Source: a virus (lineage: Duplodnaviria; Heunggongvirae; Uroviricota; Caudoviricetes). From it: DNA of 12,961 bases. The notes beneath the pieces are model-generated. The model worked only from the letters and a program-made list of their open reading frames with translations. It made no database searches and was not told where the DNA came from. The DNA lies in the IMG/VR virus record IMGVR_UViG_2778261527_000007. The stretch is one strand, 5' to 3'. Position 1 is the first letter of the stretch. Every line of letters begins with the position of its first letter. Made by a program: the position numbers and the translations under genes. Shown in pieces: positions 93-10,492 of this stretch.

Positions 93-1112
93 TTACTTCA
101 GCTTGACGTTCAGCGTGTAGTTCGGGCGCAGGTTCAGAGGGATGAAGCTCGCCTCCTGGTGAATGGTCACCATGCCGTAACGGTCAGTCATTACTTTCTG
201 GTAGAACGGGCTGATCTCGCCTTTCGCGGCGATGTCCTGATTACGGGAAGCCGGGCCGTGTACCAGTTTGAACGGGTTACGGTCAGCGCCGTTAAACTTA
301 GGAACGAACAGGCCGGAACCTTCTTCGCTTTCGTAGCGGTCATCGTCCGCCAGAATGAAAGTAATGTTGCCAATGCTGAAGGAGTCATAACCCGCAGTGT
401 TAACCGGGATCAGAGCGCCTTTTGCAGCTTCCGCCACTTTGTTGGTAATAAGGCTGGTTACTTCCGGGTGGCTCGCCAGTACGTCATACAGATCCGGGGA
501 GCAGAAGCAGAAGAAGCGGTCCAGATAGGAGCGGCTCGCGCCGTACTCTTTAACCAACATGCGGCGAATCTTCGCAAGCTGTGCATACACGTTAGCGCCT
601 GCTGAACCGTCCAGGTTGAAACTCAGCGGATCGGCACCCATCGCCGCGCGAAAGTCGATATCACCGTCGTCAGTCTTAGCCGCTTTCGCTTCCTGTTTGA
701 ACAGGGCGCGGGCCAGCGTACTTTCAACCGTTTCCAGGTGATGGTTACGCATACGGATAGCTTTAGACGCGATCACTTCAGAAATAGCCGCAACCTGATC
801 CGGGTTAGCCGGGCTGATCAGACCTTGCCAATCAGCGGTTTTTACGTCCGCTTCGGTGGCGTAGTGTGGGAGCTCCTGGTCACGCAACAGAGGCTTATCC
901 ATTTTGATGGAGTTAACTTCGGTGCCGTAGCGGGCTACCTGTTCCAGTTCAGAGACTTGAGTCTCTACGATGTCCAGAACTTGAGCGTTTGGAGTGGTGG
1001 AGTTAACACCGGAGAAGATACCCAGATCAGAGATCAGGTAATTACCCGCTGGCACTTGTTTAAGTGCCGCTACGGTGTCCAGCTTTTCAAACTGTTTAAA
1101 ATCAATAGCCAT
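93..1112 (-). CDS. Phage major capsid protein (339 aa; lambda gpE-type family suggested)
   Basis: 339-aa ORF with RBS AAGGAAAT just upstream of the ATG at 1112-1110. It lies 13 nt downstream of a ~120-aa head gene, the classic decoration-then-major-capsid arrangement; size and composition fit gpE-type capsid proteins. Family assignment is by recognition, not search. Confidence 0.7.
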   Translation of the reverse strand: MAIDFKQFEKLDTVAALKQVPAGNYLISDLGIFSGVNSTTPNAQVLDIVETQVSELEQVARYGTEVNSIKMDKPLLRDQELPHYATEADVKTADWQGLISPANPDQVAAISEVIASKAIRMRNHHLETVESTLARALFKQEAKAAKTDDGDIDFRAAMGADPLSFNLDGSAGANVYAQLAKIRRMLVKEYGASRSYLDRFFCFCSPDLYDVLASHPEVTSLITNKVAEAAKGALIPVNTAGYDSFSIGNITFILADDDRYESEEGSGLFVPKFNGADRNPFKLVHGPASRNQDIAAKGEISPFYQKVMTDRYGMVTIHQEASFIPLNLRPNYTLNVKLK

Positions 1113-1124
1113 TGTGTGATTTCC

Positions 1125-1496
1125 TTATGCTTTGAAGTAATCGGCGTTGATAGCCAGGCGAATATCACCGGAGGCTGTCAGCGCTTCCAGTGCGGCTTTT
1201 TTGCTCGCGGCGTCTTTAGCACGTAGGGCAAAATCGGTAATCACAACATGGCGATCCACGATAACCAGAGTCTTAGGCTTGCCATCGGCGGACATATTGG
1301 AAAGGTTGATGATCGGCTTGCCAGCGTCAGCGGCGGCGGAGTCGAACAGTGCAAAAGTTTTGCTGTCCAGGAGGTCACCGCAGAAGACGTCAGCCGGGAG
1401 GCTTGGGGCGGTGACTTCGGTGCGGTCAAACAGGCTGGAGGCGTAATTCACGATTACGTCACCTTGCGTTACCGGGTAGCGCTCGGAAGTTTTCAT
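1125..1496 (-). CDS. Small phage head protein, decoration-like (123 aa)
   Basis: Internal ATG at 1496-1494 preceded by AAGGAAAA, the same RBS context as the capsid gene; the longer track ORF (to 1640) has a Cys/Pro/Arg-rich N-terminal extension that is unlikely to be real. Ala/Ser-rich 123-aa protein immediately upstream of the capsid gene. Confidence 0.55.
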   Translation of the reverse strand: MKTSERYPVTQGDVIVNYASSLFDRTEVTAPSLPADVFCGDLLDSKTFALFDSAAADAGKPIINLSNMSADGKPKTLVIVDRHVVITDFALRAKDAASKKAALEALTASGDIRLAINADYFKA

Positions 1497-1689
1497 AAAG
1501 GTTTTCCTTATGGAGGGTTTTAGACGTGGAGAGAGTCCACAGGGTGATCCGGTGCAACGCCGGATATAAGGACCGCCACAGAGGACAATCCGAATTGTTG
1601 GAAGATGGGAGGCCGTGGGGTGAATAGAAGAGGGCGGCATCCGCGCCGCCCTTTCTAATCTGGCTCTCTCTCACCCTCTAGGGTGGGGG

Positions 1690-1709
1690 GAGGTGTAAAC
1701 CTCTTTTTT
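1690..1709 (+). terminator. Possible intrinsic terminator hairpin (GAGGU-GUAA-ACCUC followed by UUUUUU)
   Basis: 5-bp stem with GNRA-type tetraloop followed by six T. Nothing obviously coding upstream on +, so the role is unclear. Confidence 0.3.
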
Positions 1710-1767
1710 GTGGTCACTCACCCGCCAGCGTCACGGGAGCAACCGCCAGCCGATGGGTAAATAACCA

Positions 1768-1796
1768 CAAAAAAGAACCCGGTAGGAGAGACCGGG
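1768..1796 (-). terminator. Intrinsic terminator upstream of the head gene pair
   Basis: On the - strand: CCCGGU-CUCUCCU-ACCGGG perfect 6-bp GC-rich stem followed by UUCUUUUUUG. Sits ~270 bp upstream of the decoration-like gene start. Confidence 0.45.
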
Positions 1797-2697
1797 AGAA
1801 GACAATGTAACTTACTGTCTGATCACTTGTTTTCCTGTGTAGCCTCAGAGCCTTACATGATTTGCTTTCATGGTTCAGCAAAGAAGCCACAGAGGAAAAC
1901 GGGACGCAACCAACGCCCCGGAAACCATCGACACAAATCAACAGTTTATCGTTGAGACCAGGTAACCAGCCCGGCCCAACTGTGGACCCCTAAAGGGTCA
2001 ATACAATCGAAGGAGATTCCGCTTGTATTCTGAAGAGCCGCAGTTAGCGACGCTTTAAAATAGGGCCTGTGCCGCAAGCCCTATGATTAGAGGCATTTTG
2101 AATCGTAGGAATGTCATCAACTGGCGGAACTTGAGGAGAGGACCGCACACAAAGCATTCTGGCAAGTGGAGTTGAAAGAACGCTTTGGGTGAGGGCCGGG
2201 GACTTGCTGAAGGTTCCCGGCTCTCTTACAGACCCTGACAGGTTGGCTAAAACCCATGTTTCTGTACAGGTGTGAGGCGGCAAGCTGCAAAACGGCGATT
2301 TCGACATACTCACCATATCCCACACCATGTATATTAGTTTAACACGAATGATTATCATTTGCAATAAAAATTAATTGCATTGTGTTGTTTGATATGATAT
2401 GTGAGATTGAGGGCAGATCTGGCGGCAGGTACAGAGGAGCCACACAGAAGAGGGGCGGGAGCATCCCACAGGGGCCACAGGAAAGCCTCCACGGGGTTTT
2501 AATGGGGTAAGATGATAAATGACCTTGTCACAGTGGCGGACGCGCTGGAGAGCTTTACAGGAGGTTGTAGAGGGTGGAGGGATTATTGATTGATAATTGA
2601 ACAGGTGAGAGTGTAATTAATTTTTATTGACAGTCTATAAAGATCATGTTATTTGCGTGTGCATACGCACTCACGCCCGCGCCTCCGCGAACACATC

Positions 2698-2802
2698 TTT
2701 TAAATAAAAGATTTTTATTATAATCGTTCAATCGGACTTTGACAAGTCCTCTTTCACTCTTAAATAAAAGATCTTTTATATAATATCTATCGTTCAATAA
2801 TT
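2698..2802. repeat. AT-rich imperfect direct repeat (two ~40-bp copies, ~60 bp apart)
   Basis: TTAAATAAAAGAT(C)TTTTAT..TAAT..CGTTCAAT occurs at 2698-2735 and 2758-2802. A TTGACA hexamer lies between the copies (2739-2744). Confidence 0.5.
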
Positions 2803-2948
2803 AATCGCTTAGGCTCTTAATTATTTCACTCATATATTATTACCATTAAAACCTTCTCGGCCTGATCGGCCTTACCAGGTTTTAGGCCGTAGGCCTGTTC
2901 CCACAATGTGGAGTCTCGCCTGTGTGGCTCACTCCAGACAGGGACCCC

Positions 2949-3006
2949 GGAAATATTTTCCGGGCAGGGTGGAAGATTTTTCCGGCCTGTTAGGAAATAT
3001 TTTCCG
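2949..3006. repeat. Three phased 14-bp repeats GGAA(A/G)AT(A/T)TTTTCCG at 22-bp spacing
   Basis: Copies at 2949-2962, 2971-2984 and 2993-3006, each a near-palindrome (GGAAA..TTTCC). The 22-bp phasing equals two helical turns, typical of protein-binding arrays (operator, iteron or packaging-site type). Confidence 0.6.
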
Positions 3007-3414
3007 ACAATAAGACTATATATAAAACTACCCATAAGACTAACACCCAGGGGCCAGGTCAAGATCTTTAAGGGAGTGTTGGGGAAATCGTAGATTGATT
3101 GGTAAGAGACTGATCTCTGTTAAGCGTCTTACAGACGCGCCTCTTTGGCAGCGCTCGTACCAGCGAGCAAGACCCCTTTGGAACACCGCACGATGTAAGG
3201 TGACCTCTGGGCGGCGGGGTGGGGTCCCCGGCCCGGCATAACGTACAGAACCACAACCCACAGGAACCCACCTAAACGCGCCGCTGTGGCGCTCTCTCCT
3301 ACGTAGACAAGGAAACACCTTATAAACGCCCTCCGGCGCTCTGAGAGCCTTACAGGGGCTTTCTGTGCCTATAGCACAATAAACAAATGATCGCAAGATA
3401 AATCAATAAAGTTA

Positions 3415-3443
3415 TTGCGAATCATTGTCAAATAGTGTAAAAT
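3415..3443 (+). promoter_or_regulatory. Candidate sigma70 promoter for the + strand operon
   Basis: TTGCGA (3415-3420), 17-bp spacer, TAAAAT (3438-3443), ~75 bp upstream of the first ORF. A second candidate is TTGTGA (3449-3454) / TATATA (3472-3477). Confidence 0.3.
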
Positions 3444-3517
3444 AGATATTGTGACGGGGTAGTTAATCAGGTATATAAATCCCCATCATACTATAACCAA
3501 CCCAGCAGGAGAATGCA

Positions 3518-3943
3518 ATGAGTATTTACCTTGATGTTGAAAAAATGGTTGAACGTGTCGATCAGCGTGATCTGACCCGTAAGACCCTGACAGAAACCCG
3601 CAGCCGGATGAAAGCCGCCGGACGTATGAGAGAAGTAGAAGCGATTACGCAGGCCCTTGAATTGACCAAATCCAGTGCCTCCGGCGTTATGCGCCAGTCT
3701 CAGCGCCTCACAGGTAAAATTACAGAGATGGACGCAGAGAAGGCATTAGAGCTTAAAGCAACCGTTGCGCTGTTCGCTTCCAAGTCTACGGATCTGCAAG
3801 CCTCCATTGTGCTGGCGTTCCAATCCCTCTTTGAGGCTAAAGGCGTGCCGATGGAATATGACGAAGTGATGGCCTACATCATGTTGAATGCGGCGGATCA
3901 GTTTGAGCGTATCACCGGAGAGCTACCCGTAATCGTACATTAA
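3518..3943 (+). CDS. Hypothetical protein (141 aa)
   Basis: First gene of the operon; ATG preceded by AGGAG with a 6-nt spacer. No family recognised. Confidence 0.65.
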   Translation: MSIYLDVEKMVERVDQRDLTRKTLTETRSRMKAAGRMREVEAITQALELTKSSASGVMRQSQRLTGKITEMDAEKALELKATVALFASKSTDLQASIVLAFQSLFEAKGVPMEYDEVMAYIMLNAADQFERITGELPVIVH

Positions 3944-3972
3944 TTTTTAACTTACTTTTTGGAGAGGAAACA

Positions 3973-4158
3973 ATGAGCAAATATCAGCCTTATGTTGATT
4001 TGAGTGATTCCCCTGTGTTGTCAGCGTATGCACAGCAGACGATCAACCAGTTAGACCCCATCCTGTATAGCGACATTTACGAAATGTTGACGCAGGTTAG
4101 CCCCTCCCAAATGGTGACGATTGGCAACCCGGCTATTACCGCCCCGGCGTCATGGTGA
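3973..4158 (+). CDS. Hypothetical small protein (61 aa)
   Basis: ATG preceded by GGAGAGGA; tightly packed after the previous gene. Confidence 0.45.
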   Translation: MSKYQPYVDLSDSPVLSAYAQQTINQLDPILYSDIYEMLTQVSPSQMVTIGNPAITAPASW

Positions 4159-4220
4159 GGTGATTGGTTCGGCCTCAACCTCACCGCTGAAGACATCGCA
4201 GAATTAAAGGAGATTAGCCT

Positions 4221-4409
4221 GTGAGTAAAAATAAAGAGTTGGGGATCAGCTTCGATCCCTATGTGATGGAGCAGCTTTTCGCGTTGGCCTCCACCCGTGA
4301 ACATGGCAGCGTTCACACCATTGTTAAGAAAGCCGTTAGCCAGTACCTGAAAACCGTTAATTCCATCTCTGTTAAGGATTCCCAAAATGACAGCAGCCGC
4401 AGTAAGTAA
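4221..4409 (+). CDS. Ribbon-helix-helix (CopG/Arc-like) DNA-binding protein (62 aa, GTG start)
   Basis: GTG start preceded by AAGGAG. N-terminal pattern ISFDPYVMEQLFALASTREHGSVHTIVKKAVSQYLK fits the beta-strand/helix/loop/helix layout of RHH regulators. Confidence 0.5.
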   Translation: MSKNKELGISFDPYVMEQLFALASTREHGSVHTIVKKAVSQYLKTVNSISVKDSQNDSSRSK

Positions 4410-5049
4410 GCCATTTACCGCAATCCCGCATGACCTTGCGGACATTGAGCTGATCGGAGGCAAGGCGTTTACCATGAACATGGTTTACACCTACAGCCTG
4501 ATCAAAGGTTACCAGGACAATGGGCAAACGGCCTATTTCTCACAAGATCTTTTAGCCCGTCGCCTGGGGGCCACAGATCGAACCGTCCGCAACCTGTTGC
4601 GCGATATGTTGGAGATGGGTCTGATTAACAAGACCGGGCAGATCGGCGGCAAGACCTGCCATTACACAGTTAACCCGATCACCCCGGAAATGGTGGGAAC
4701 CCCTGAAGCCGCCAAACCTGAAGTAACCAAACCAACCGCAGCACCCCAACCGAAGGAGACCGTAGAGAATGCAGGAAGTAACCAGCCTGGAATTGTTAAG
4801 TGTGGATCTGAAAGTGTACATAGAAGCCGCCCGGCGTCGCCTGGAGCTTCTCCTGTGGACCACAGCGGGGGCGCTATTCGTCCCGCTCCTGTCCCTGTGC
4901 CAGTAGAGCAGGGGGCCGCAAACGATGATTTACGCAACCCTGTTATTAATTTTGTGGCTGGCTCTAATGTGATGATGGTCAACGGCTTGCCTGTTGAATA
5001 TCTGGAGCCAGAAGAAAGCGCCGTTGATCAGTTTGGTGATGCTTTCTAA
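4387..5049 (+). CDS. Winged-HTH (HTH_36-like) DNA-binding protein, possible replication initiator or organiser (220 aa)
   Basis: ATG preceded by AAGGA; overlaps the RHH gene by 23 nt. Motif AYFSQDLLARRLGATDRTVRNLLRDMLEMGLI resembles the HTH of phage/plasmid replication proteins, followed by a Pro/Ala-rich linker and an acidic C-terminal domain. Alternative start at ATG 4474. Confidence 0.6.
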   Translation: MTAAAVSKPFTAIPHDLADIELIGGKAFTMNMVYTYSLIKGYQDNGQTAYFSQDLLARRLGATDRTVRNLLRDMLEMGLINKTGQIGGKTCHYTVNPITPEMVGTPEAAKPEVTKPTAAPQPKETVENAGSNQPGIVKCGSESVHRSRPASPGASPVDHSGGAIRPAPVPVPVEQGAANDDLRNPVINFVAGSNVMMVNGLPVEYLEPEESAVDQFGDAF

Positions 5050-5125
5050 AAATCTGCAATTGATTTCCCAATAATAACACTATACACCAAACCCCCGCGC
5101 TTTACAACCCTCTGGAGACTCTCGC

Positions 5126-5692
5126 ATGAATGAATTTATTACAACCAAATTCAAAGCCTTATCCTCTGAGGAAGAGGCCGCAGTTAACGCACTGGCTGAG
5201 AAATTGGCAGCAAACAAGCCCCGCCGGATTATGGATGAGAGCCACTTAACCCCGGATCAAATCCTGAAGATCAAGCGGGCCTGTATTCAGGGCCACAGCG
5301 CTAAAGCCATCCAAGCGGCGTTTAATGTGTCGCTGGCTTACGTCCTGAAAGTAAAGCGCAGCCACAACCCCCAGAAGTACCAAAAGACCCCGCTAACTTT
5401 GGCTGAAAAAGGCGTTATGGCTAAACAGATGGAAGCCGACGGCCTGAGCCTCTCCAAAATGGCGGAACTCCTGGGGATTAACAGTAAGATGGTCTCCCTA
5501 CTTCTTACCCAACCTTCACCCCGTTACCTGGTGGAGCAAATGCTCCCGTATGACCAAGTTTTGCAGAATCTACGCAGCGCCCGCTATGTAGAAAACCCTG
5601 TATACAAAGAGGGGACGAATAAGCGCCGTGTGCGTCTAATCGTTTCTGAAGCACGTCAGCAGACCCGCCAGGCAATCATTAAATCCCGGTAA
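5126..5692 (+). CDS. DNA-binding protein with two predicted HTH motifs (188 aa)
   Basis: ATG preceded by GGAGA. Two HTH-like segments (..GHSAKAIQAAFNVSLAYVLKVKR.. and ..GLSLSKMAELLGINSKMVSLLL..) and a basic C-terminus. Confidence 0.6.
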   Translation: MNEFITTKFKALSSEEEAAVNALAEKLAANKPRRIMDESHLTPDQILKIKRACIQGHSAKAIQAAFNVSLAYVLKVKRSHNPQKYQKTPLTLAEKGVMAKQMEADGLSLSKMAELLGINSKMVSLLLTQPSPRYLVEQMLPYDQVLQNLRSARYVENPVYKEGTNKRRVRLIVSEARQQTRQAIIKSR

Positions 5693-5863
5693 CTATGCCC
5701 AACCCAACGGAATGGGGTCTAAAGGATTATTTAGGCTCCAAACTGGTTAAGCGTCAGACAAGACTCTCTAACTTTCTCGCCTCACTCCTCTACATCCCCT
5801 TTAAACCCGCCTCCCTCTTCCTGTGGGGTGTGGTAATCACTTTACTTATAAGGACCCTCTCAC

Positions 5864-6238
5864 ATGGAAGCATTTAAGAACCTCCTCAATCAGTTGGAAA
5901 TTCAGAAGGCAGAACAGCGCCAGCGGGAAGCCGAAGAGGCAACCAAACAGAACGAACTCCGCAAGGCACAGGCCGATCTGTCACTGGATGAGGCTATCGC
6001 TCTGTACGCCACACAGTTGGAAGCCTCCGCCAATGCCGCAGACAGCGCCCAGAAGGGCCGCGCCATTAAGAGCCGGGGAATTGCTCTGTGTCACAAGGAT
6101 CAGGGATTCAGCGCCAACGGTCGCCCGGTCTCTCTCCTGACCAAATCCGCAGACCTGCCAGCAGGTCACCGCCGGGTAATCATTAACAAGGCAGCAGGGC
6201 GCACCCTGAAGGCTATCAAACTGGAAGGGGATGAATAA
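5864..6238 (+). CDS. Hypothetical protein (124 aa), translationally coupled to the tape-measure-domain gene
   Basis: ATG preceded by AAGGA. Its stop TAA (6236-6238) overlaps the next ATG (6238-6240) as TAATG. N-terminus is coiled-coil-like. Confidence 0.6.
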   Translation: MEAFKNLLNQLEIQKAEQRQREAEEATKQNELRKAQADLSLDEAIALYATQLEASANAADSAQKGRAIKSRGIALCHKDQGFSANGRPVSLLTKSADLPAGHRRVIINKAAGRTLKAIKLEGDE

Positions 6239-8373
6239 TGAGCGGTAACGTGATCATTACCAAAACGATTAACCGGACCATGTTCACCACGGACGGGGCC
6301 AGCTATAAAAAGACAGTTGACCGTATCAAACAGGTAGGGAAAGAGTGGGACAAAGTAGCGTCCAAGATGAAACCGCTACGCCTCAAGTTTGAGGAAAACG
6401 CCTACACCAAGATCCGCCGGAAACAGCAGGACGCCGCCGCAAAAGCAGCACTGGCAGAAGCCAAAGCCAAAGCGGCAGCAGACGCCAAAGCAGCCAAAGC
6501 ACAGATCGCAGCGGAGCGTAAGATCCAGACAATCCGCGCTAAAGCTATCCGCTTCAGCACTTCAGCGGCTAACGCCAACGTGACCCCGGCCCAACGTGCT
6601 GGACACCTCCAGGAGTTTGGACAGCTTACGCGCCAGTATCACGCCGGGTCTATGGCATTGCAGGAATATAACGCCCGTGTGTCAAAACTTCAGCAAACCA
6701 TGCGCCAACAAGGCCGGGTAGGCATGAGGGGAGCCACAATTCCAGTAACCGCCAAAGTTAACAAACTGGACACCTCCATGATCGAGGGTGCAGGGGGGGC
6801 GATCACCATTGCCGCAACTGTGGCGCTGAGCGGCAAGATCATGACCACCGGGCAGGATTTTGAATCCGCGCTTTCTGGTCTGACAGCGATCACCGGTTCC
6901 ACAGATAAGGCCGCTAAAGAGTTTGATTATCTCCGTGATCAATCCAACCGTTTGGGGCTGGACCTCCTGAAGACTTCAAAGGATTACACTCAATTTGCCG
7001 CCGCTGTTGGTGACAAACTCCCTAAAGACCAGATGAGATCCATCTTTGAGGGTGCCAGTGAATGGGGCCTTGTTACTGGTGCAGACGCCGACGCACAAAG
7101 CCGCGCTTTGAAAGCACTTAACCAAATGATGAGTAAGGGAACGGTGATGAGTGAAGAACTCAAAGGCCAGCTTTCCGAAGCTCTCCCGGGCGCTGTGGGT
7201 CTGTTCGTTAAGGCTCTCAACCAGATGAAAGGGACAACCAACCTTACAGAAAAGGATCTGTTTGACCTGATGCAACAAGGGAAGCTGTTCTCTAAGGACA
7301 TCCTCCCGGAAGTGGCGAAACAGATGAAAGCCGCAGCTCGTAACGGCGGCGCTCTGGATAAGGCTATGAAGTCCAACCGGGCAAGTTGGCAGCGCCTGCA
7401 AACCAGTATGCAGAACGCTATGAATATCTTCTTTACTTCTGGCTTTGGTAACTCACTAACCAGCGCTTTCGACGCTATCAGCGCCGCTGTTAACGGCTCT
7501 GGTGGGGCCTTTGAGATGTTCGGGCATATCGCCGGGAAAATCGTTGAGGGTGCCACAGATGCGTTTACAGAGTTGCACGACACTGTGATCCTGACCTTCC
7601 GCATTATTGAGTATTACGCCGCTAAGATGGGGATCACTGGTGAGCAGCTTAAATCCTGGGGAGAAATGGCAGCATACGCCGCCGGGGTGGCTCTGTTCGC
7701 TGGCTCTATCTGGAAGTTGGGCGGGGCCTTTAAATGGTTGTTGACCATGCTCAACCCGCTAACCAAATTGCTGGGGGTCATGAAAGGGATCGCCGCTATT
7801 GGTGGCATTGAATCCGCTACAACTGGCGGATCTGGTGGGGAAGGTAAAGACAAGCCAAACAAACCGGGCCGGGGTCCGAAAGTTGGCAAGGTAGGCGGCG
7901 CGGCGGCTCTCTCTGGCGGTCCTGTTGGCTGGGGCATTGCGATCGGTTCGGTAGGTGGGGATTATGCCTGGGATAAAGTCATGGACGCTAACGACGCCAT
8001 GTATGGACAGGACACCACCGCCGGAGGCAATCTGAAGAAAGATAGCCCGCTGGGTAAACTGTGGGATTTCATCCACAGCCCAGACCTTCCGACTAATCCA
8101 GACTTTGCCAAACCAACAGATAAAACAGGGTGGGTAAGCTCTTACTCCAATCCGGGTTATGTTCCTCCTGCGCCGACGATTACAGCGCCACAGCTTAAAG
8201 TTGATATGGCAGGTAATCCACTGATGACGCCGCCAGCGTGGCTAAACCAGCCGCTTAACGTGAACGTCAATGTGAAAGTGCAGGATGGGCAGGTTAGGGA
8301 TCTGGTCCGCTCTGAAGTTGAGACCAACAACCAGCAGGCTTTCAACATGCTGATGCAGGGCGGGCCGAACTAA
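6238..8373 (+). CDS. Phage tail tape-measure-domain protein (711 aa)
   Basis: N-terminal Ala/Lys-rich coiled coil, then a region (..ADAQSRALKALNQMMSKGTVMSEELKGQLSEALPGAVGLFVKALNQM..) matching the conserved tape-measure domain as I recall it. C-terminal half has hydrophobic Gly-rich segments (..VGGAAALSGGPVGWGIAIGSVGG..) typical of tape-measure proteins. RBS AGGGGA. Confidence 0.75.
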   Translation: MSGNVIITKTINRTMFTTDGASYKKTVDRIKQVGKEWDKVASKMKPLRLKFEENAYTKIRRKQQDAAAKAALAEAKAKAAADAKAAKAQIAAERKIQTIRAKAIRFSTSAANANVTPAQRAGHLQEFGQLTRQYHAGSMALQEYNARVSKLQQTMRQQGRVGMRGATIPVTAKVNKLDTSMIEGAGGAITIAATVALSGKIMTTGQDFESALSGLTAITGSTDKAAKEFDYLRDQSNRLGLDLLKTSKDYTQFAAAVGDKLPKDQMRSIFEGASEWGLVTGADADAQSRALKALNQMMSKGTVMSEELKGQLSEALPGAVGLFVKALNQMKGTTNLTEKDLFDLMQQGKLFSKDILPEVAKQMKAAARNGGALDKAMKSNRASWQRLQTSMQNAMNIFFTSGFGNSLTSAFDAISAAVNGSGGAFEMFGHIAGKIVEGATDAFTELHDTVILTFRIIEYYAAKMGITGEQLKSWGEMAAYAAGVALFAGSIWKLGGAFKWLLTMLNPLTKLLGVMKGIAAIGGIESATTGGSGGEGKDKPNKPGRGPKVGKVGGAAALSGGPVGWGIAIGSVGGDYAWDKVMDANDAMYGQDTTAGGNLKKDSPLGKLWDFIHSPDLPTNPDFAKPTDKTGWVSSYSNPGYVPPAPTITAPQLKVDMAGNPLMTPPAWLNQPLNVNVNVKVQDGQVRDLVRSEVETNNQQAFNMLMQGGPN

Positions 8374-8389
8374 CCGCCCATACAAAAAA

Positions 8390-8419
8390 GGCTCCCCTAG
8401 TGGGAGCCTTTTCTCTTTT
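8390..8419. terminator. Bidirectional intrinsic terminator between the convergent tape-measure and recombinase genes
   Basis: GGCTCCC-CTAGT-GGGAGCC perfect 7-bp stem, flanked by an A-run (8384-8389) and a T-rich tail (8409-8419). Confidence 0.6.
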
Positions 8420-8442
8420 ATAACTCCTAATATCCAGGCTTT

Positions 8443-9009
8443 TCATAACAGATCTTCTATTGAATATTTATTACTGAAATCATCTACTTTGCGTTGTGTG
8501 GCCCCAATGTAATGGAGCGTACTGGATAACGATTTGTGCCCCAATGCCTTACTGATTACGGCTATATCCTCCCCATTGTCATAACCAATCGTTGGTTTAC
8601 TCTTCCTCATGCTGTGGGTCGAAAGATTCAGCCCCAGCTTTTCCCCGGCGTAGCTAATTTCCTCATGCAATTTGGAGCGGCTCACAGGTTTTCCCTTGCT
8701 CCTGTGGCTGTCCAACTGTAAGAGGTATACATGATCAGGGTTCGCCTCTCTCCGGGCCGCTATGATGCGTTTAGCGGTATCGGTGAGCCTCACCCGGACA
8801 GATTCACCCGTTTTCTGTTGGGACAGGACAAGGTGATCGCCTTTGATGTCGTCATAACGGATAGAGCGCAGATCCGACACCCTCAGCATTAATTCATAAC
8901 CCAGCAACCAGGCGTCACGGTACAGCGTCAGCCCCTTGCCCTGTTTGAGTAGCTCAACCGCTACCGCTTTCACTTCCTGAACTGATTTACAGCCCTCTAC
9001 GAAATTCAT
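8443..9009 (-). CDS. Tyrosine recombinase, integrase catalytic domain only (188 aa; FimB/FimE-sized)
   Basis: Strong RBS GGAGGG 5 nt before the ATG. All catalytic signature residues of lambda-Int-type recombinases are present in order: R (LRVSDL), K (QQKTG), H-x-x-R (HSMRKS), H and Y (LGHKSLSSTLHY). There is no room for N-terminal arm- or core-binding domains. Confidence 0.75.
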   Translation of the reverse strand: MNFVEGCKSVQEVKAVAVELLKQGKGLTLYRDAWLLGYELMLRVSDLRSIRYDDIKGDHLVLSQQKTGESVRVRLTDTAKRIIAARREANPDHVYLLQLDSHRSKGKPVSRSKLHEEISYAGEKLGLNLSTHSMRKSKPTIGYDNGEDIAVISKALGHKSLSSTLHYIGATQRKVDDFSNKYSIEDLL

Positions 9010-9033
9010 TCTGTACCCTCCAGATCCTAACTG

Positions 9034-9050
9034 TGATCAATTCTTGATCA
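9034..9050. promoter_or_regulatory. 17-bp palindrome TGATCAA-TTC-TTGATCA with two GATC sites, in the recombinase promoter region
   Basis: Perfect 7-bp inverted arms with a 3-bp spacer, 25-41 bp upstream of the recombinase start codon. Confidence 0.35.
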
Positions 9051-9403
9051 AAAACATGCACTTGTAAACGACAAAAATGATTAATTTTATGATGTGTCTT
9101 TTTAGTGAATTAAATCGGGTTTAATCGCGTTTAATGGTAAAGTAATGACCCGGCAGGGGAGGTAATGACCTGTTTAAGTGGGTAAAAGATGGTTACTTAA
9201 TGTACTATCACCACAAGGCGGGTAAGGTGATTTGACTCCCCCAGCGCCTTAAAGTTACTGTATTTGTGGGCAATTAATTATTGTTTCGTTATGGTGTTGC
9301 CTGGCAAATTTTCAATTTACCCTCAAGAAAAAATCCCCAGCTTTTTTATCCTTATATGAGAATCAATATCATTTGTAAACGATAGTCGTTCTCGTTACCA
9401 ATC

Positions 9404-9582
9404 GGGGCGAAAGCCTTCGCCCCTCAAAGGGCCTCTGTAGGCCCGCTCTCTGTATGCGCCTGTGGCGCTACCACTCTTAACCCTGTGGGTTTGTATTACT
9501 TGTCACAAGATAATGCGCCACAGGCGCACAGGGGAGGCGTCCGCCTCCAGGGTGGCCCGGCTGGGCCACTGGTCCACAGGGT
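9404..9582. repeat. Cluster of GC-rich hairpins and nested inverted repeats
   Basis: Successive perfect stems: GGGGCGAA/TTCGCCCC (9404-9423), GGGCCT/AGGCCC (9429-9444), GCGCC-TGT-GGCGC (9456-9468) and its reverse complement GCGCC-ACA-GGCGC (9515-9527), GGAGGC/GCCTCC (9533-9548), GTGGCCC/GGGCCAC (9552-9569). A 9-bp inverted pair ACCCTGTGG (9480-9488) / CCACAGGGT (9574-9582) encloses part of it. Does not match the REP consensus I remember. Confidence 0.5.
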
Positions 9583-9972
9583 AAAACAACAGAATGGTAT
9601 TGTGTTGTTATTAAGTAATTGAGAATAAAGGGATATCTGAGTGAGCGCACTGTAAGAGCGGAAGGTTGGACAATGTTTGACCAGAATGCAGGCCATCCGG
9701 TAGGGAGCGCCCCCAGATATTTGGCGAAAATACTCTCATCACCCGGGGCCTCAGATCGAGGGGCCTAGCAACAATATCCAAACTCCCGGATATTTTCCCA
9801 CCCAACTGGAAGGAATCCGCCCCTATTTTCTGTTCGTGTATAGGTTAGGCTGAGGGAGGCTTGCCAATGTACACCCCCTGGATTTGGTGATCTGTTAAGT
9901 TATTGATTTTGATCGATTTTAGATCAATCATCCGTTGCCGGGATTACCCCCCACCCAGACGGATGGCACACA

Positions 9973-10155
9973 ATGAATAACGATAAAGCAAACCACCCTA
10001 AACACTTCCAATACTTGGGCCGCATGGTCACTGTTTACCCTACATACATCATTATTGACGGTATCAAGATCAGCCGTGCCCGTCTTTCCTTTGCATTCCA
10101 ATTGGAATTGGCAAAAGCACTTCGACTGCATGAAGAAAGCGTATGCAGAAAATAA
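9973..10155 (+). CDS. Hypothetical small protein (60 aa), uncertain
   Basis: ORF followed 37 nt later by a strong intrinsic terminator; RBS is weak (GGATGG). Confidence 0.3.
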   Translation: MNNDKANHPKHFQYLGRMVTVYPTYIIIDGIKISRARLSFAFQLELAKALRLHEESVCRK

Positions 10156-10191
10156 ATTTCATTTAAATCTTCACGACTGAATAATTTACTT

Positions 10192-10217
10192 AAGCCGCCT
10201 TATGGGCGGTTTTTTTT
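10192..10217 (+). terminator. Intrinsic terminator
   Basis: GC-rich stem (GCCGCC / GGCGG) with 5-nt loop, followed by eight T (10210-10217). Confidence 0.6.
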
Positions 10218-10366
10218 GTGCCTGCCATTTATCTGTGGGTCACAACGTGAGACACAAACTGGGACACAGAGGATTTTTTAGGGTTGAGTCTTTGGCTTCC
10301 CGCTGGCATGATCCAGAACAGGGATTAACGGGACGTTAATCGCAAGCTTTTGATTTTGTTTTATTT

Positions 10367-10492
10367 GACTCGGGGTGCCCTTCTTAAATGAAGGCTGAGA
10401 AATACCCGTATTACCTGATCTGGATAATGCCAGCGTAGGGAAGTCACGGACCACCAGGTCATTGCTTCTTCACGTTATGGCAGGAGCAAACT
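10367..10492 (+). promoter_or_regulatory. TPP (THI-box) riboswitch in the thiM leader
   Basis: Aptamer (about 10367-10445) GACUCGGGGUGCCCUUC..GGCUGAGAAAUACCCGUAUUACCUGAUCUGGAUAAUGCCAGCGUAGGGAAGUC is near-identical to the E. coli thiM TPP aptamer as recalled, including the CUGAGA and ACCUGAUCUGGAUAAUGCCAGCGUAGGGAA elements. Expression platform runs to the thiM SD and ATG. Confidence 0.9.

Follow-up and report, generated by a model that had tools for sequence, protein, structure and literature searches.

CCACAGG copies, conserved hairpins and a covarying leader in a phage-satellite-like element of Enterobacterales

Why should one seven-nucleotide word, CCACAGG, recur on both strands of the DNA around an operon and a short recombinase gene? 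A sequence-only reading of this locus had proposed that the word is over-represented, that it is associated with hairpins of the form GCGCC-N3-5-GGCGC, and that two of these hairpins might be the termini of a cassette or members of a small dispersed repeat family. The window (the whole stretch of 12,961 nucleotides that was analysed) holds most of a phage-satellite-like integrative element of about 13.5 kb in the E. coli thiM riboswitch. We favour, tentatively and at slightly below even confidence, the view that the word is a reused part of regulatory RNAs.

The element and its motif copies

The thiM TPP riboswitch is disrupted and rebuilt by the island. Comparison of occupied sites with the empty K-12 site places the element boundary at a 71-bp direct repeat of the riboswitch; the attL copy is found beyond the window, next to a 452-aa integrase. 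Members of the family are found in the Enterobacterales (E. coli, Enterobacter, Cronobacter, Pantoea, Citrobacter, Salmonella, Pectobacterium and Serratia) and carry interchangeable integrases and defence-like cargo. The element genes include a lambda E-like capsid, a decoration-like protein, a phiTE_211-like protein, a tape measure and an O-like HTH_36 initiator. Portal, protease and terminase are not among them and the virion set is incomplete.

Exact matches to CCACAGG on both strands number 12 in the window against 1.82 +/- 1.23 in 200 dinucleotide shuffles, none of which reached 12, in agreement with the one to two copies originally expected by chance. The positions first listed were right within 1-2 nt (2467 becomes 2466, 5818 becomes 5820 and 9458 becomes 9459), while the copies at 1537, 4852, 8701 and 11668 had been missed. 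The predominance of non-coding copies held: by the RefSeq annotation, non-coding DNA makes up 29% of the window and contains 9/12 copies (binomial P = 0.0012). Exactly three GCGCC-N3-5-GGCGC hairpins occur, at the sites first proposed (3278, 9456 and 9515), against 0.07 expected, and no shuffle reached three. The host flanks contain 8 copies of the word in 98.8 kb (0.081 per kb), whereas the 10.06-kb element core of the window contains 11, an approximately 13-fold excess (Poisson P = 1e-9). Eight other family members were counted and hold 9-13 copies each per ~10 kb, and the enrichment is reproduced in members that are only 60-80% identical. Chance or base composition is hardly credible as an explanation in view of these shuffles, the excess over real host flanks and its repetition in diverged members, even though 3/12 copies are coding, where codon usage could contribute (Pro-Gln, Leu-Trp), and one of these lies in host thiD.

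Table 1 Features of the window
Feature	Positions	Strand	Remarks
attR	10366-10436	+	71-bp repeat common to attL; true right boundary; part of thiM TPP riboswitch (10361-10458)
All CCACAGG copies (first position, strand)	1537+, 2466+, 2475+, 3258+, 4852-, 5820-, 8701-, 9459-, 9482-, 9518+, 9574+, 11668+		coding: 4852 (HTH gene), 8701 (recombinase gene), 11668 (thiD, host)
CCACAGG copy	1537-1543	+	CCUGUGG in minus-strand RNA; GUGG is 5' arm of hairpin GUGGA-cucuc-UCCAC
Tandem CCACAGG pair	2466-2481	+	9 nt apart, inside segment 2392-2610
CCACAGG copy	3258-3264	+	within 17-mer ACCACAACCCACAGGAA
CCACAGG copy	4852-4858	-	within palindrome CTGTGG-A-CCACAG, 3' part of HTH_36 / replication-initiator-like gene
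CCACAGG copy	5820-5826	-	CCUGUGG in mRNA sense; spacer 44 nt upstream of phiTE_211-like gene
CCACAGG copy	8701-8707	-	inside short recombinase gene; coding, conserved along with gene
Structured RNA (leader), ~850 nt	1497-2345	-	upstream of decoration-like and capsid genes; conserved, covariation-supported
Three terminator-like hairpins with T-rich tails	1920-1900, 1796-1778, 1652-1631	-	within 1631-1920 of leader
Hairpin GCGCC-gctgt-GGCGC	3278-3292	+	conserved across family
Promoter-like TTGCGA-17-TAAAAT	3415-3443	+	in front of rightward operon
Tyrosine recombinase, 188 aa	8443-9009	-	catalytic domain only, R-K-H-R-H-Y intact
Nearly invariant hairpin block	9394-9592		tandem array of eight short, GC-rich hairpins; contains four CCACAGG copies (9459-, 9482-, 9518+, 9574+)
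Block hairpins a, b, c, d	9404-9423, 9429-9444, 9456-9468, 9479-9491
Block hairpins e, f, g, h	9499-9509, 9515-9527, 9533-9548, 9552-9569
Imperfect 17-19-nt inverted repeat	9449-9468 / 9515-9533		CTGT(AT)GCGCCTGTGGCGC / GCGCCACAGGCGCACAG, 46 nt apart

As cassette ends, the hairpins at 3278 and 9456 have in their favour that they are directly oriented and 6.2 kb apart, and that the sequence pieces on either side of a block at 9380-9592 have contiguous counterparts in the left non-coding region. The true boundaries are nevertheless the att repeats of the riboswitch. The first proposal asked whether the stretch 3278-9468 is present or absent as a unit; in the empty and partial sites compared the breaks fall at att or at IS4. 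The IS4-associated deletions of the E. coli partial variants extend not from 3278 to 9468 but from the interior of the HTH gene (window position about 4566, converted from L040 coordinates) almost up to the recombinase. The two modules are moreover inherited independently. Two members (L006 and L007) lack the whole block and the recombinase while retaining the 3278 hairpin, hairpins of the 3278 type occur without the 9456/9515 pair in these and in L011, L027, L029 and L035, and in Serratia relatives operon and recombinase module stand in the opposite relative orientation. The notion of a small repeat family survives in part, as the word recurs within the element family with turnover of its sites; a spread through the host chromosome is contradicted by its low density in host flanks and by the restriction of the block to the family (IMG/VR returned family contigs only and the phage collection nothing). 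The flank 9010-10280 matches 31/5426 E. coli genomes, all at this or related islands. Cassette ends, which these comparisons refute, and genome-wide REP- or MITE-like repeats are accordingly very improbable. In the contiguous left pieces, 2346-2365 resembles 9360-9379 and 2373-2391 resembles 9593-9611, the right counterparts bracketing 9380-9592; judging from these likenesses, that block may itself once have been inserted between formerly contiguous pieces.

A conserved hairpin set and a covarying leader

The block at 9394-9592 has a folding z-score of -6.4, and its variation shows that it evolves as a set of hairpins. Stems vary at 9/90 positions and loops at 14/30 (Fisher P = 4e-5), while the three motif loops vary at 0/9 positions against 14/21 in the other loops (P = 8e-4). 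With so little variation the block offers no true compensatory changes. Three wobble substitutions speak for the plus strand, but in folding the two strands do equally well. The hairpins at 9456-9468 and 9515-9527 are mutual reverse complements, as first proposed, and the inverted repeat that contains them would form an alternative long helix joining hairpins c and f. The block is absent in L003, L006, L013-15, L032 and L036 and is always inherited together with the 188-aa recombinase, which has weak NCBIfam invertase matches. The equivalent region of Serratia elements gives z = -2.2 and +0.1 and shows no clear structure. Consensus scans detected no sigma-70-like plus-strand promoter upstream of the block or of the hairpins at 3040-3400. 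The promoter-like site 3415-3443 keeps its initial TTG, and nearly all of TAAAAT, without change throughout the family. Wobble pairs of the 3278-3292 hairpin fit the plus strand only (GC:12 GU:3; GC:12 GU:2; CG:11 UG:2 CA:1), and CCUGUGG hairpins in operon spacers of two further members (L016 and L009) are likewise kept through G.U pairs in plus (mRNA) sense only.

Alignment covariation shows window positions 1497-2345 to encode a conserved structured RNA on the minus strand, predicted to run into the decoration-like and capsid genes. In alignment A3 of this leader (20 sequences, 78 pairs) 96.6% of cells are paired. Both partners have changed in 21 pairs, compared with 6.2 +/- 1.8 pairs in shuffles (0/500 reach 21) and 1-6 in slid controls. 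Alignment A6 (14 sequences, 85 pairs) is 94.9% paired, with 14 pairs changed on both sides against 3.2 +/- 1.4 in shuffles (0/500 reach this). When the A3 pairs are read as the plus strand only 85.4% are canonical; GU pairs number 181 against 9 AC. Alifold over 1617-2016 prefers the minus strand by 11-20 kcal/mol. UGUGG:CCACA supplies both strands of several leader helices, and the motif occurs in A3 helices 2, 7 and 11. Three minus-strand leader hairpins have the layout of an intrinsic terminator, a GC-rich hairpin followed by a U-tract. The motif hairpins gave weak terminator calls only (9529-9513 minus and 9479-9491 plus), with 3278-3292 and 9456-9468 not called. Promoter-like matches lie on the minus strand at 2745-2717 and, by eye, at about 2365-2330 (TTGCAA-17-TAAACT). 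Against Rfam 15 the host TPP riboswitch alone reaches threshold, and permissive scans of 1400-3600 and 8950-10360 returned noise (E >= 0.47).

The hairpin at 1537, which precedes the start of the decoration-like gene by 41 nt, forms helix 11 of A3 and covaries to GCGGC/GCCGC in L012. The copy at 5820 has a counterpart in other members, where the spacer upstream of the phiTE_211-like gene carries a non-homologous CCUGUGG hairpin tip. The 17-mer around 3258 is 16/17 complementary to 5818-5834, and its motif copy is poorly conserved (GCAGCAGG and CCCGCAGG in relatives). The segment 2392-2610 is full length in the window, L002, L004, L005 and near relatives and partial in L026, and is flanked by an inverted repeat (2359-2381 / 2610-2632, 19/23). 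No convincing hairpin was found for the copies at 2466/2475 and 3258 or for the direct repeats CTCACCTGTGG x2 of Serratia L045, and these copies look more like protein-binding repeats.

RNA, double-stranded or single-stranded DNA

In the RNA interpretation that we favour, the 7-mer would serve either as the tip of a stem-loop (CC-UGU-GG or CC-ACA-GG) or as one strand of a UGUGG:CCACA helix, and some copies would be recognised sequence-specifically. Through antitermination the leader may permit the capsid to be expressed only when transcription passes the leader terminators, with a helper phage or a factor of the element as the probable trigger. Recognition of the motif tips could be by a putative protein or by pairing of copies in opposite orientation, for example hairpin c with f. 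No factor that recognises the motif came to light, and the fold of p141 is uninformative. One family member (L006) lacks any exact copy, which counts against the building-block role. A stronger version, which we regard as quite unlikely, would make the ~850-nt minus-strand leader and the ~200-nt hairpin array new classes of large structured RNA by which a previously undescribed family of phage satellites would sense helper infection. A pairing code of CCUGUGG/CCACAGG copies in opposite orientation, or the docking of a helper factor, would then turn termination in the leader into read-through and license production of the element's own capsid and tape measure.

A possible but less probable explanation is that a protein binds the copies in double-stranded DNA, whether as iterons, operators or recombinase sites of a protein encoded by the element or as packaging sites of a helper terminase, in two clusters flanking the operon as in the P4 ori and crr iterons. 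The tandem or palindromic layout is as such sites would have it (2466 and 2475, CTGTGG-A-CCACAG at 4852 and CCACAGGcgCACAGG at 9518), and in Serratia L045 the CTCACCTGTGG repeats and CCTGTGG x2 adjoin obvious iterons. Turnover of sites at a kept copy number, motif loops that stay invariant while other loops drift, and a block without a nearby consensus promoter point the same way. The motif nevertheless tracks no element protein. L009, L019 and L012 have no tblastn match to the HTH_36 initiator of the window yet hold 9 copies each, including an identical hairpin block, and the motif is also kept with a ~60%-identical p188. Members without the short recombinase (L003, L013 and L036) still hold 7-9 copies, whereas L046 has the recombinase and only two. 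The eight block palindromes all differ, and therefore one dimeric protein cannot explain the block. Conserved stems with drifting loops are the pattern of a folded nucleic acid, the 1537 copy covaries as a stem, and no phage DNA resembling the motif regions was matched. The same stem-and-loop pattern and G.T-compatible substitutions fit single-stranded DNA as well as RNA, and hairpins that serve, for example, in priming or single-strand initiation, or that give the short tyrosine recombinase a folded substrate, would have the plus strand of the block as the functional one. The block lies ~250 nt from iteron-like TTTAATCGCG repeats and GATC repeats, a possible origin, and its strict co-inheritance with the recombinase and the lack of a consensus promoter agree with this. 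There is however no sign of a single-stranded stage: rolling-circle Rep or relaxase is absent and only the O-like initiator is present. The minus-strand leader is continuous with mRNA and has terminator-like hairpins, an RNA feature, and linkage alone could explain the co-inheritance. We consider single-stranded DNA improbable.

Comparison with known systems and meaning

The lambda N/nut, Q and HK022 put leaders are alike in placing several hundred nucleotides of structure, with successive hairpins and U-tracts, before virion genes, and by this analogy the leader may be a site of antitermination. A lambda-type nut site was defined as an CGCUCUUUA-like boxA that precedes a boxB hairpin by a few nt, on the transcript downstream of an early promoter. 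The boxA-like CACUCUUAA (CACTCTTAA, 9472-9480), which we take to be 8/9 identical to lambda nutL boxA, directly abuts hairpin d; CGCUCUCU adjoins hairpins c and 3278, and GCTCTCT occurs at 3291 and 9445. Neither count of boxA-like words departs significantly from chance (6, with 3.2 expected, and 4, with 1.25 expected; reached by 18/200 and 8/200 shuffles). Lambda boxB is a pentaloop, whereas the motif hairpins end in triloops of UGU or ACA. All element proteins were scanned with Pfam, PHROGs and NCBIfam, which revealed no N-, Q- or Nun-like or arginine-rich antiterminator. A CsrB-like sponge RNA, with many hairpins that present GGA in the loop, is not supported by the motif hairpins, whose UGU or ACA loops leave GG in the stem; ACAGGA words occur elsewhere.

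P4 likewise has a short motif in two non-coding clusters kilobases apart that flank its replication gene (the ori and crr iterons, beside the seqA/seqC of CI RNA), and its RNA immunity likewise uses complementary short segments repeated within leader transcripts. Replication iterons as in P4 ori/crr or lambda ori are disfavoured, since the motif is unchanged when the initiator type changes. Rfam found no C4/CI-like RNA. Unlike P4, the element has its own capsid and tape-measure homologues, and homologues of P4 alpha, Sid and Psu were not detected. REP/BIME elements share short, tandem, intergenic GC-rich imperfect palindromes, some in mRNA spacers, but the present hairpins are confined to one mobile element family and are unrelated in sequence by eye; such an origin was rejected on the host-flank counts and the restriction of the flank to islands. 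With fimS the locus shares a catalytic-domain-only FimB/FimE-like recombinase of ~190 aa adjoining a ~0.95-kb non-coding stretch, here with inverted repeats at both ends (9034-9063 / 9897-9926), and a module oppositely oriented in Serratia relatives. All E. coli-type sequences compared (14 distinct right-flank versions) have one orientation with no ON/OFF pair seen, and only the distant Serratia lineage has the whole module inverted, which speaks against a fimS-like switch. We judge the 46-bp spacing of the motif-bearing inverted repeat too short for inversion.

The element resembles P4-like satellites, PICIs and capsid-forming PICIs as a ~13.5-kb integrative island with swappable integrases, defence-like cargo, an initiator-like gene and few virion genes, and it probably behaves as a satellite. 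To our knowledge its gene set fits none of these classes, and unlike known satellites it has an unusual conserved non-coding stretch of 1.7-2.1 kb. The literature yielded no paper on these hairpin regions. We know of few bacterial RNA structures of several hundred nucleotides that are conserved with covariation support, and this leader precedes virion genes in a mobile element that is compact and spread through the Enterobacterales. If the leader and hairpin array time the making of capsid, they would offer a tractable RNA-based switch for the study of satellite-helper conflict. Either way, the CCACAGG motif is shown not to be a mobile-element boundary.

Motif enrichment and the island that carries it

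Enrichment of the 7-mer CCACAGG (or its complement CCTGTGG) in the window proved to be real. Twelve copies were counted against 1.82 ± 1.23 in dinucleotide-preserving shuffles, none of 200 shuffles reached that number, and chance is effectively excluded as the source. All eight positions listed by the sequence-only reading were right within 1-2 nt, and four copies (1537, 4852, 8701 and 11668) had been missed. Its description of the copies as mostly intergenic was borne out by nine of the twelve falling in the 29% of the window that is non-coding in RefSeq (P = 0.0012). The pattern GCGCC-N3-5-GGCGC has three hairpin sites and no more (0.07 expected), all at the places that reading had named. 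Flanking host DNA from the fetched loci has 8 copies of the 7-mer in 98.8 kb, and the element core within the window has 11 in 10.06 kb (Poisson P = 1e-9); counts in eight relatives range from 9 to 13. Most of the interest lies in the surroundings of the motif, more than in the motif as first described.

Chromosomal DNA of E. coli makes up the window, which matches strain 90-1 at 99.9% identity, lies between rcnR and thiM and includes most of an island. Of 5426 complete E. coli genomes, about 31 have this island. When the empty site of K-12 is compared, a 71-bp direct repeat, part of the thiM TPP riboswitch, is seen at both island ends. The sequence-only reading had suggested that the hairpins may mark the ends of a cassette or form a small dispersed repeat family. 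The empty-site comparison set the island limits at the att repeats and not at the motif hairpins, and together with deletion variants it rejects the hairpins as cassette ends. E. coli variants without the island middle carry an IS4 remnant, and their breakpoints fall within the HTH gene and immediately ahead of the recombinase. The 3278-type hairpin is kept in relatives without the 9456/9515 pair, and L003, L006, L013-15, L032 and L036 lack both the recombinase and the entire hairpin block of the right non-coding region. In Serratia elements, the recombinase and its ~0.6-kb upstream region are inverted relative to the operon (L045 9390-10569; window counterpart 8443-9622). The cassette reading failed every test that had been proposed for it and is effectively excluded. 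The dispersed repeat family is also rejected, as every hit to the block in E. coli genomes and IMG/VR belongs to the element family and motif density in host flanks is low; the phage collection gave no match to the block at all.

Integration inside the riboswitch duplicates the 71 bp (L001, the strain matching the window, 13447-13517). In the riboswitch reconstituted before thiM, the 5' edge and the promoter region upstream of it come from the island, and a partial copy remains beside rcnR. Just inside attR, 10301-10327 is complementary at 23 of 27 positions to riboswitch part 10409-10435, and 10282-10307 at 23 of 26 to 5919-5944 within the phiTE_211-like ORF; an estimated ~0.003 such complementary 26-mers are expected by chance, and these stretches could be integrase arm sites or reflect antisense pairing. 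In E. coli H8 (L039 1-1500) the same site is occupied by another element, which encodes a capsid, a hypothetical protein and a C2H2 zinc-finger protein and shares ~85 bp next to attR; the riboswitch is therefore an integration hotspot. In L001 (13604-17773) the island integrase is disrupted by IS911, and therefore this copy is probably immobile. Element-sized contigs were rejected as evidence of an episome, since they end in att repeats or include host flanks and show no terminal overlap.

Gene order was taken from the intact copy in strain SCU-316. Next to attL come genes for a 452-aa integrase and an ATP-dependent nuclease, followed by two leftward genes, the lambda-E-like capsid gene and a small one upstream of it. 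Non-coding DNA of ~2 kb separates these from a rightward operon for p141, two small ORFs, a phage replication-initiator-like HTH_36 protein, p188 (also HTH), a phiTE_211-like protein and a tape-measure protein of 711 aa. Beyond the operon are the gene for the 188-aa tyrosine recombinase, which points leftward, a further ~1 kb of non-coding DNA, a 60-codon ORF and attR. The 60-codon ORF is present in most copies, unannotated in SCU-316 but seen there by tblastn, and is followed by a terminator in the window. Around p141 homologues in Enterobacter, Cronobacter, Pantoea, Citrobacter, Salmonella, Pectobacterium and Serratia, the gene arrangement is the same. Integrases differ within the family (tyrosine of 402, 452 or 556 aa; serine of 585 aa), and attachment sites and cargo vary, DarTG being one example. 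The tape-measure pair is nearest to large myophages of phiTE/CR3 type (37-39% amino acid identity), the capsid has remote phage relatives only, and the element has no portal, protease or terminase. We infer that the element is a phage-satellite-like island. The family (window 93-10365, L002-L046) comprises ~13.5-kb elements in at least eight Enterobacterales genera. Integrases are interchangeable, as is cargo (OLD-like nuclease, DarTG, HNH), and the sole virion-type genes are the lambda-E-like capsid, a decoration-like protein, the phiTE_211-like protein and the tape measure. The family seems to be undescribed; a literature search returned no paper describing the element proteins or the family. 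The structure model of p141 is confident and all-helical, with no fold match.

Features of the island, in window coordinates
Feature	Position	Strand	Remark
Left non-coding region	1497-3517
Hairpin with T-rich tail	1652-1631	minus	in leader
Hairpin with T-rich tail	1796-1778	minus	in leader
Hairpin with T-rich tail	1920-1900	minus	in leader
Motif hairpin	3278-3292		GCGCC-N3-5-GGCGC
Operon promoter-like site	3415-3443		conserved
188-aa recombinase	8443-9009	minus
Right non-coding region	9010-9972
Hairpin block	9394-9592		hairpins a-h
Motif hairpin c	9456-9468		GCGCC-N3-5-GGCGC
Motif hairpin d	9479-9491
Motif hairpin f	9515-9527		GCGCC-N3-5-GGCGC
thiM TPP riboswitch	10361-10458
attR	~10366-10436		71-bp repeat

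A structured leader in the left non-coding region

The left non-coding region measures 1.7-2.1 kb in 35 of 35 spanning loci and is a mosaic of strongly conserved blocks with no family match in Rfam. Alignments of 20 non-redundant sequences (60-98% identical) show, on the evidence of covariation, a structured RNA on the minus strand over 1497-2345. Folding of 1497-1960 with RNAalifold gave 78 pairs with 96.6% of cells paired; both sides changed in 21 of these pairs, as compared to 6.2 ± 1.8 in shuffled alignments (0 of 500 reached 21) and one to six in slid controls. The 85 pairs of 1961-2345 are 94.9% paired, with both-side changes in 14 versus 3.2 ± 1.4. Many leader pairs are invariant G.U, the pairs of 1497-1960 are just 85.4% canonical when read on the plus strand, and the consensus folding energy of 1617-2016 is better on the minus strand by 11-20 kcal/mol. 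The leader RNA continues into the gene for the decoration-like protein, which starts at 1496 after a AAGGAAAA ribosome site and after indels that are not multiples of three. Among the leader hairpins with T-rich tails, the stems of the two farthest upstream vary between members and the tail is preserved. Motif words in this RNA are structural: UGUGG and CCACA form opposing strands of helices 2 and 7, and the 1537 copy is one arm of helix 11, where L012 has GCGGC/GCCGC.

In the AT-rich, control-like centre of the region, CAATAATTAATTG palindromes recur and the minus strand has a strong promoter match. At 2359-2632, a 19/23 inverted repeat (TTGCAATAAAAATTAATTGCATT) surrounds a 228-bp purine-rich segment that is complete only in a subgroup (the window, L002, L004, L005 and near relatives) and could be an insertion or a duplicated operator. 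Farther right, the only variation in the conserved 3278-3292 hairpin consists of G.U pairs that fit the plus strand, with seven wobble cells to one A.C. The operon promoter-like site lies downstream, and therefore a plus-strand RNA over 3040-3400 needs a promoter farther upstream; none was identified there. An invariant GTGAC...GGCGG core within GGTGACCTCTGGGCGGCGGGGTGGGG at 3200-3226 resembles the lambda cohesive-end sequence (GGGCGGCGACCT) and is a possible cos-like site. In Serratia (L045 3130-3200), three ~22-bp iterons (AGATAGGGGTGGGGGT) occupy the right end of the region beside CCTGTGG direct repeats.

The hairpin block beside the recombinase

Comparison of 14 distinct sequences revealed that the block is near-invariant and the following 250 nt only ~60% identical. 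From the recombinase gene through ~9600, nucleotide identity is 95-98% even to L012, which elsewhere is 35-80% identical. The recombinase consists of a catalytic domain only, with the full catalytic residue set, and is 97-100% identical across elements otherwise differing by up to 65%. The block itself consists of eight consecutive short GC-rich hairpins (folding z = -6.4 versus shuffles), with 9 of 90 stem positions variable against 14 of 30 loop positions (P = 4e-5). In the motif hairpins c and d (TGT loops) and f (ACA loop), none of nine loop positions varies; the remaining five hairpins vary at 14 of 21 (P = 8e-4). Therefore, the 7-mer itself is constrained in c, d and f, beyond the fold. 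Hairpin c is the reverse complement of hairpin f, and the two could alternatively form a single 17-19-bp helix. Three wobble substitutions favour the plus strand and are too few to fix it. The block sits between two short sequences that adjoin one another in the left region, and therefore it may be a former insertion. Its Serratia counterpart is a different sequence, not clearly structured, and folding z-scores do not support a diverged hairpin array there.

Two kinds of repeat within 9034-9140 and 9897-9926 may together represent an origin or a recombinase site. One is a set of iteron-like TTTAATCGCG repeats at 9108-9140, which has a counterpart in L003 (19018-19055); the other is a GATC-containing inverted repeat (TGATCAAttcTTGATCA) with one arm at each end of the right non-coding region.

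Possible roles of the motif

Motif copies lie at non-homologous places in different members. Those in operon intergenic spacers have, without exception, the sequence CCUGUGG in the mRNA; L016 and L009 present it there at the tip of a hairpin that mRNA-sense G.U pairs preserve. L006 has no exact copy, and the left region of Serratia L045 has seven, some as plain direct repeats. Sequence-specific constraint appears to act on some copies. The 3250-3266/5818-5834 pairing (16/17) drops to 11/17 in L002 without compensation (hand alignment), and therefore represents a shared motif rather than a conserved pairing. Neither the initiator type, p188 nor the short recombinase tracks motif presence, so that no protein partner emerged by co-variation. 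Mimicry of helper cos/pac sites was discarded, as neither non-coding region matches phage DNA even at E <= 10. A KOPS-like polarity, which the window order (++++ ----- ++) resembled, fails in L002 and L003; a DnaA box (TTATCCACA) fits few copies only, such as L003 19411; and CsrA sites are contradicted by GG lying in stems, not loops.

Double-stranded DNA sites would be in keeping with the tandem and palindromic copies, the invariant motif loops and the lack of consensus promoters on either side of the block, and we consider this reading rather unlikely. That the hairpins act in single-stranded DNA is more doubtful still. The best-supported reading, which we favour tentatively, takes the 7-mer for a recurrent building block of folded regulatory RNA, where it would serve as a stem-loop tip (CC-UGU-GG or CC-ACA-GG) or as one strand of a helix. 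Known kinds include structured leaders, antitermination, satellite iterons and short recombinases; for this motif, its ~850-nt leader, the near-invariant array of hairpins and the elements as a family, no match came from Rfam, Pfam, PHROGs, NCBIfam, phage DNA or the literature. Under the regulatory RNA reading, the mechanism that seems likeliest to us is that terminators in the long minus-strand leader would hold the capsid genes off until a helper- or element-encoded factor allowed read-through, and that the motif tips would be recognition or pairing points.
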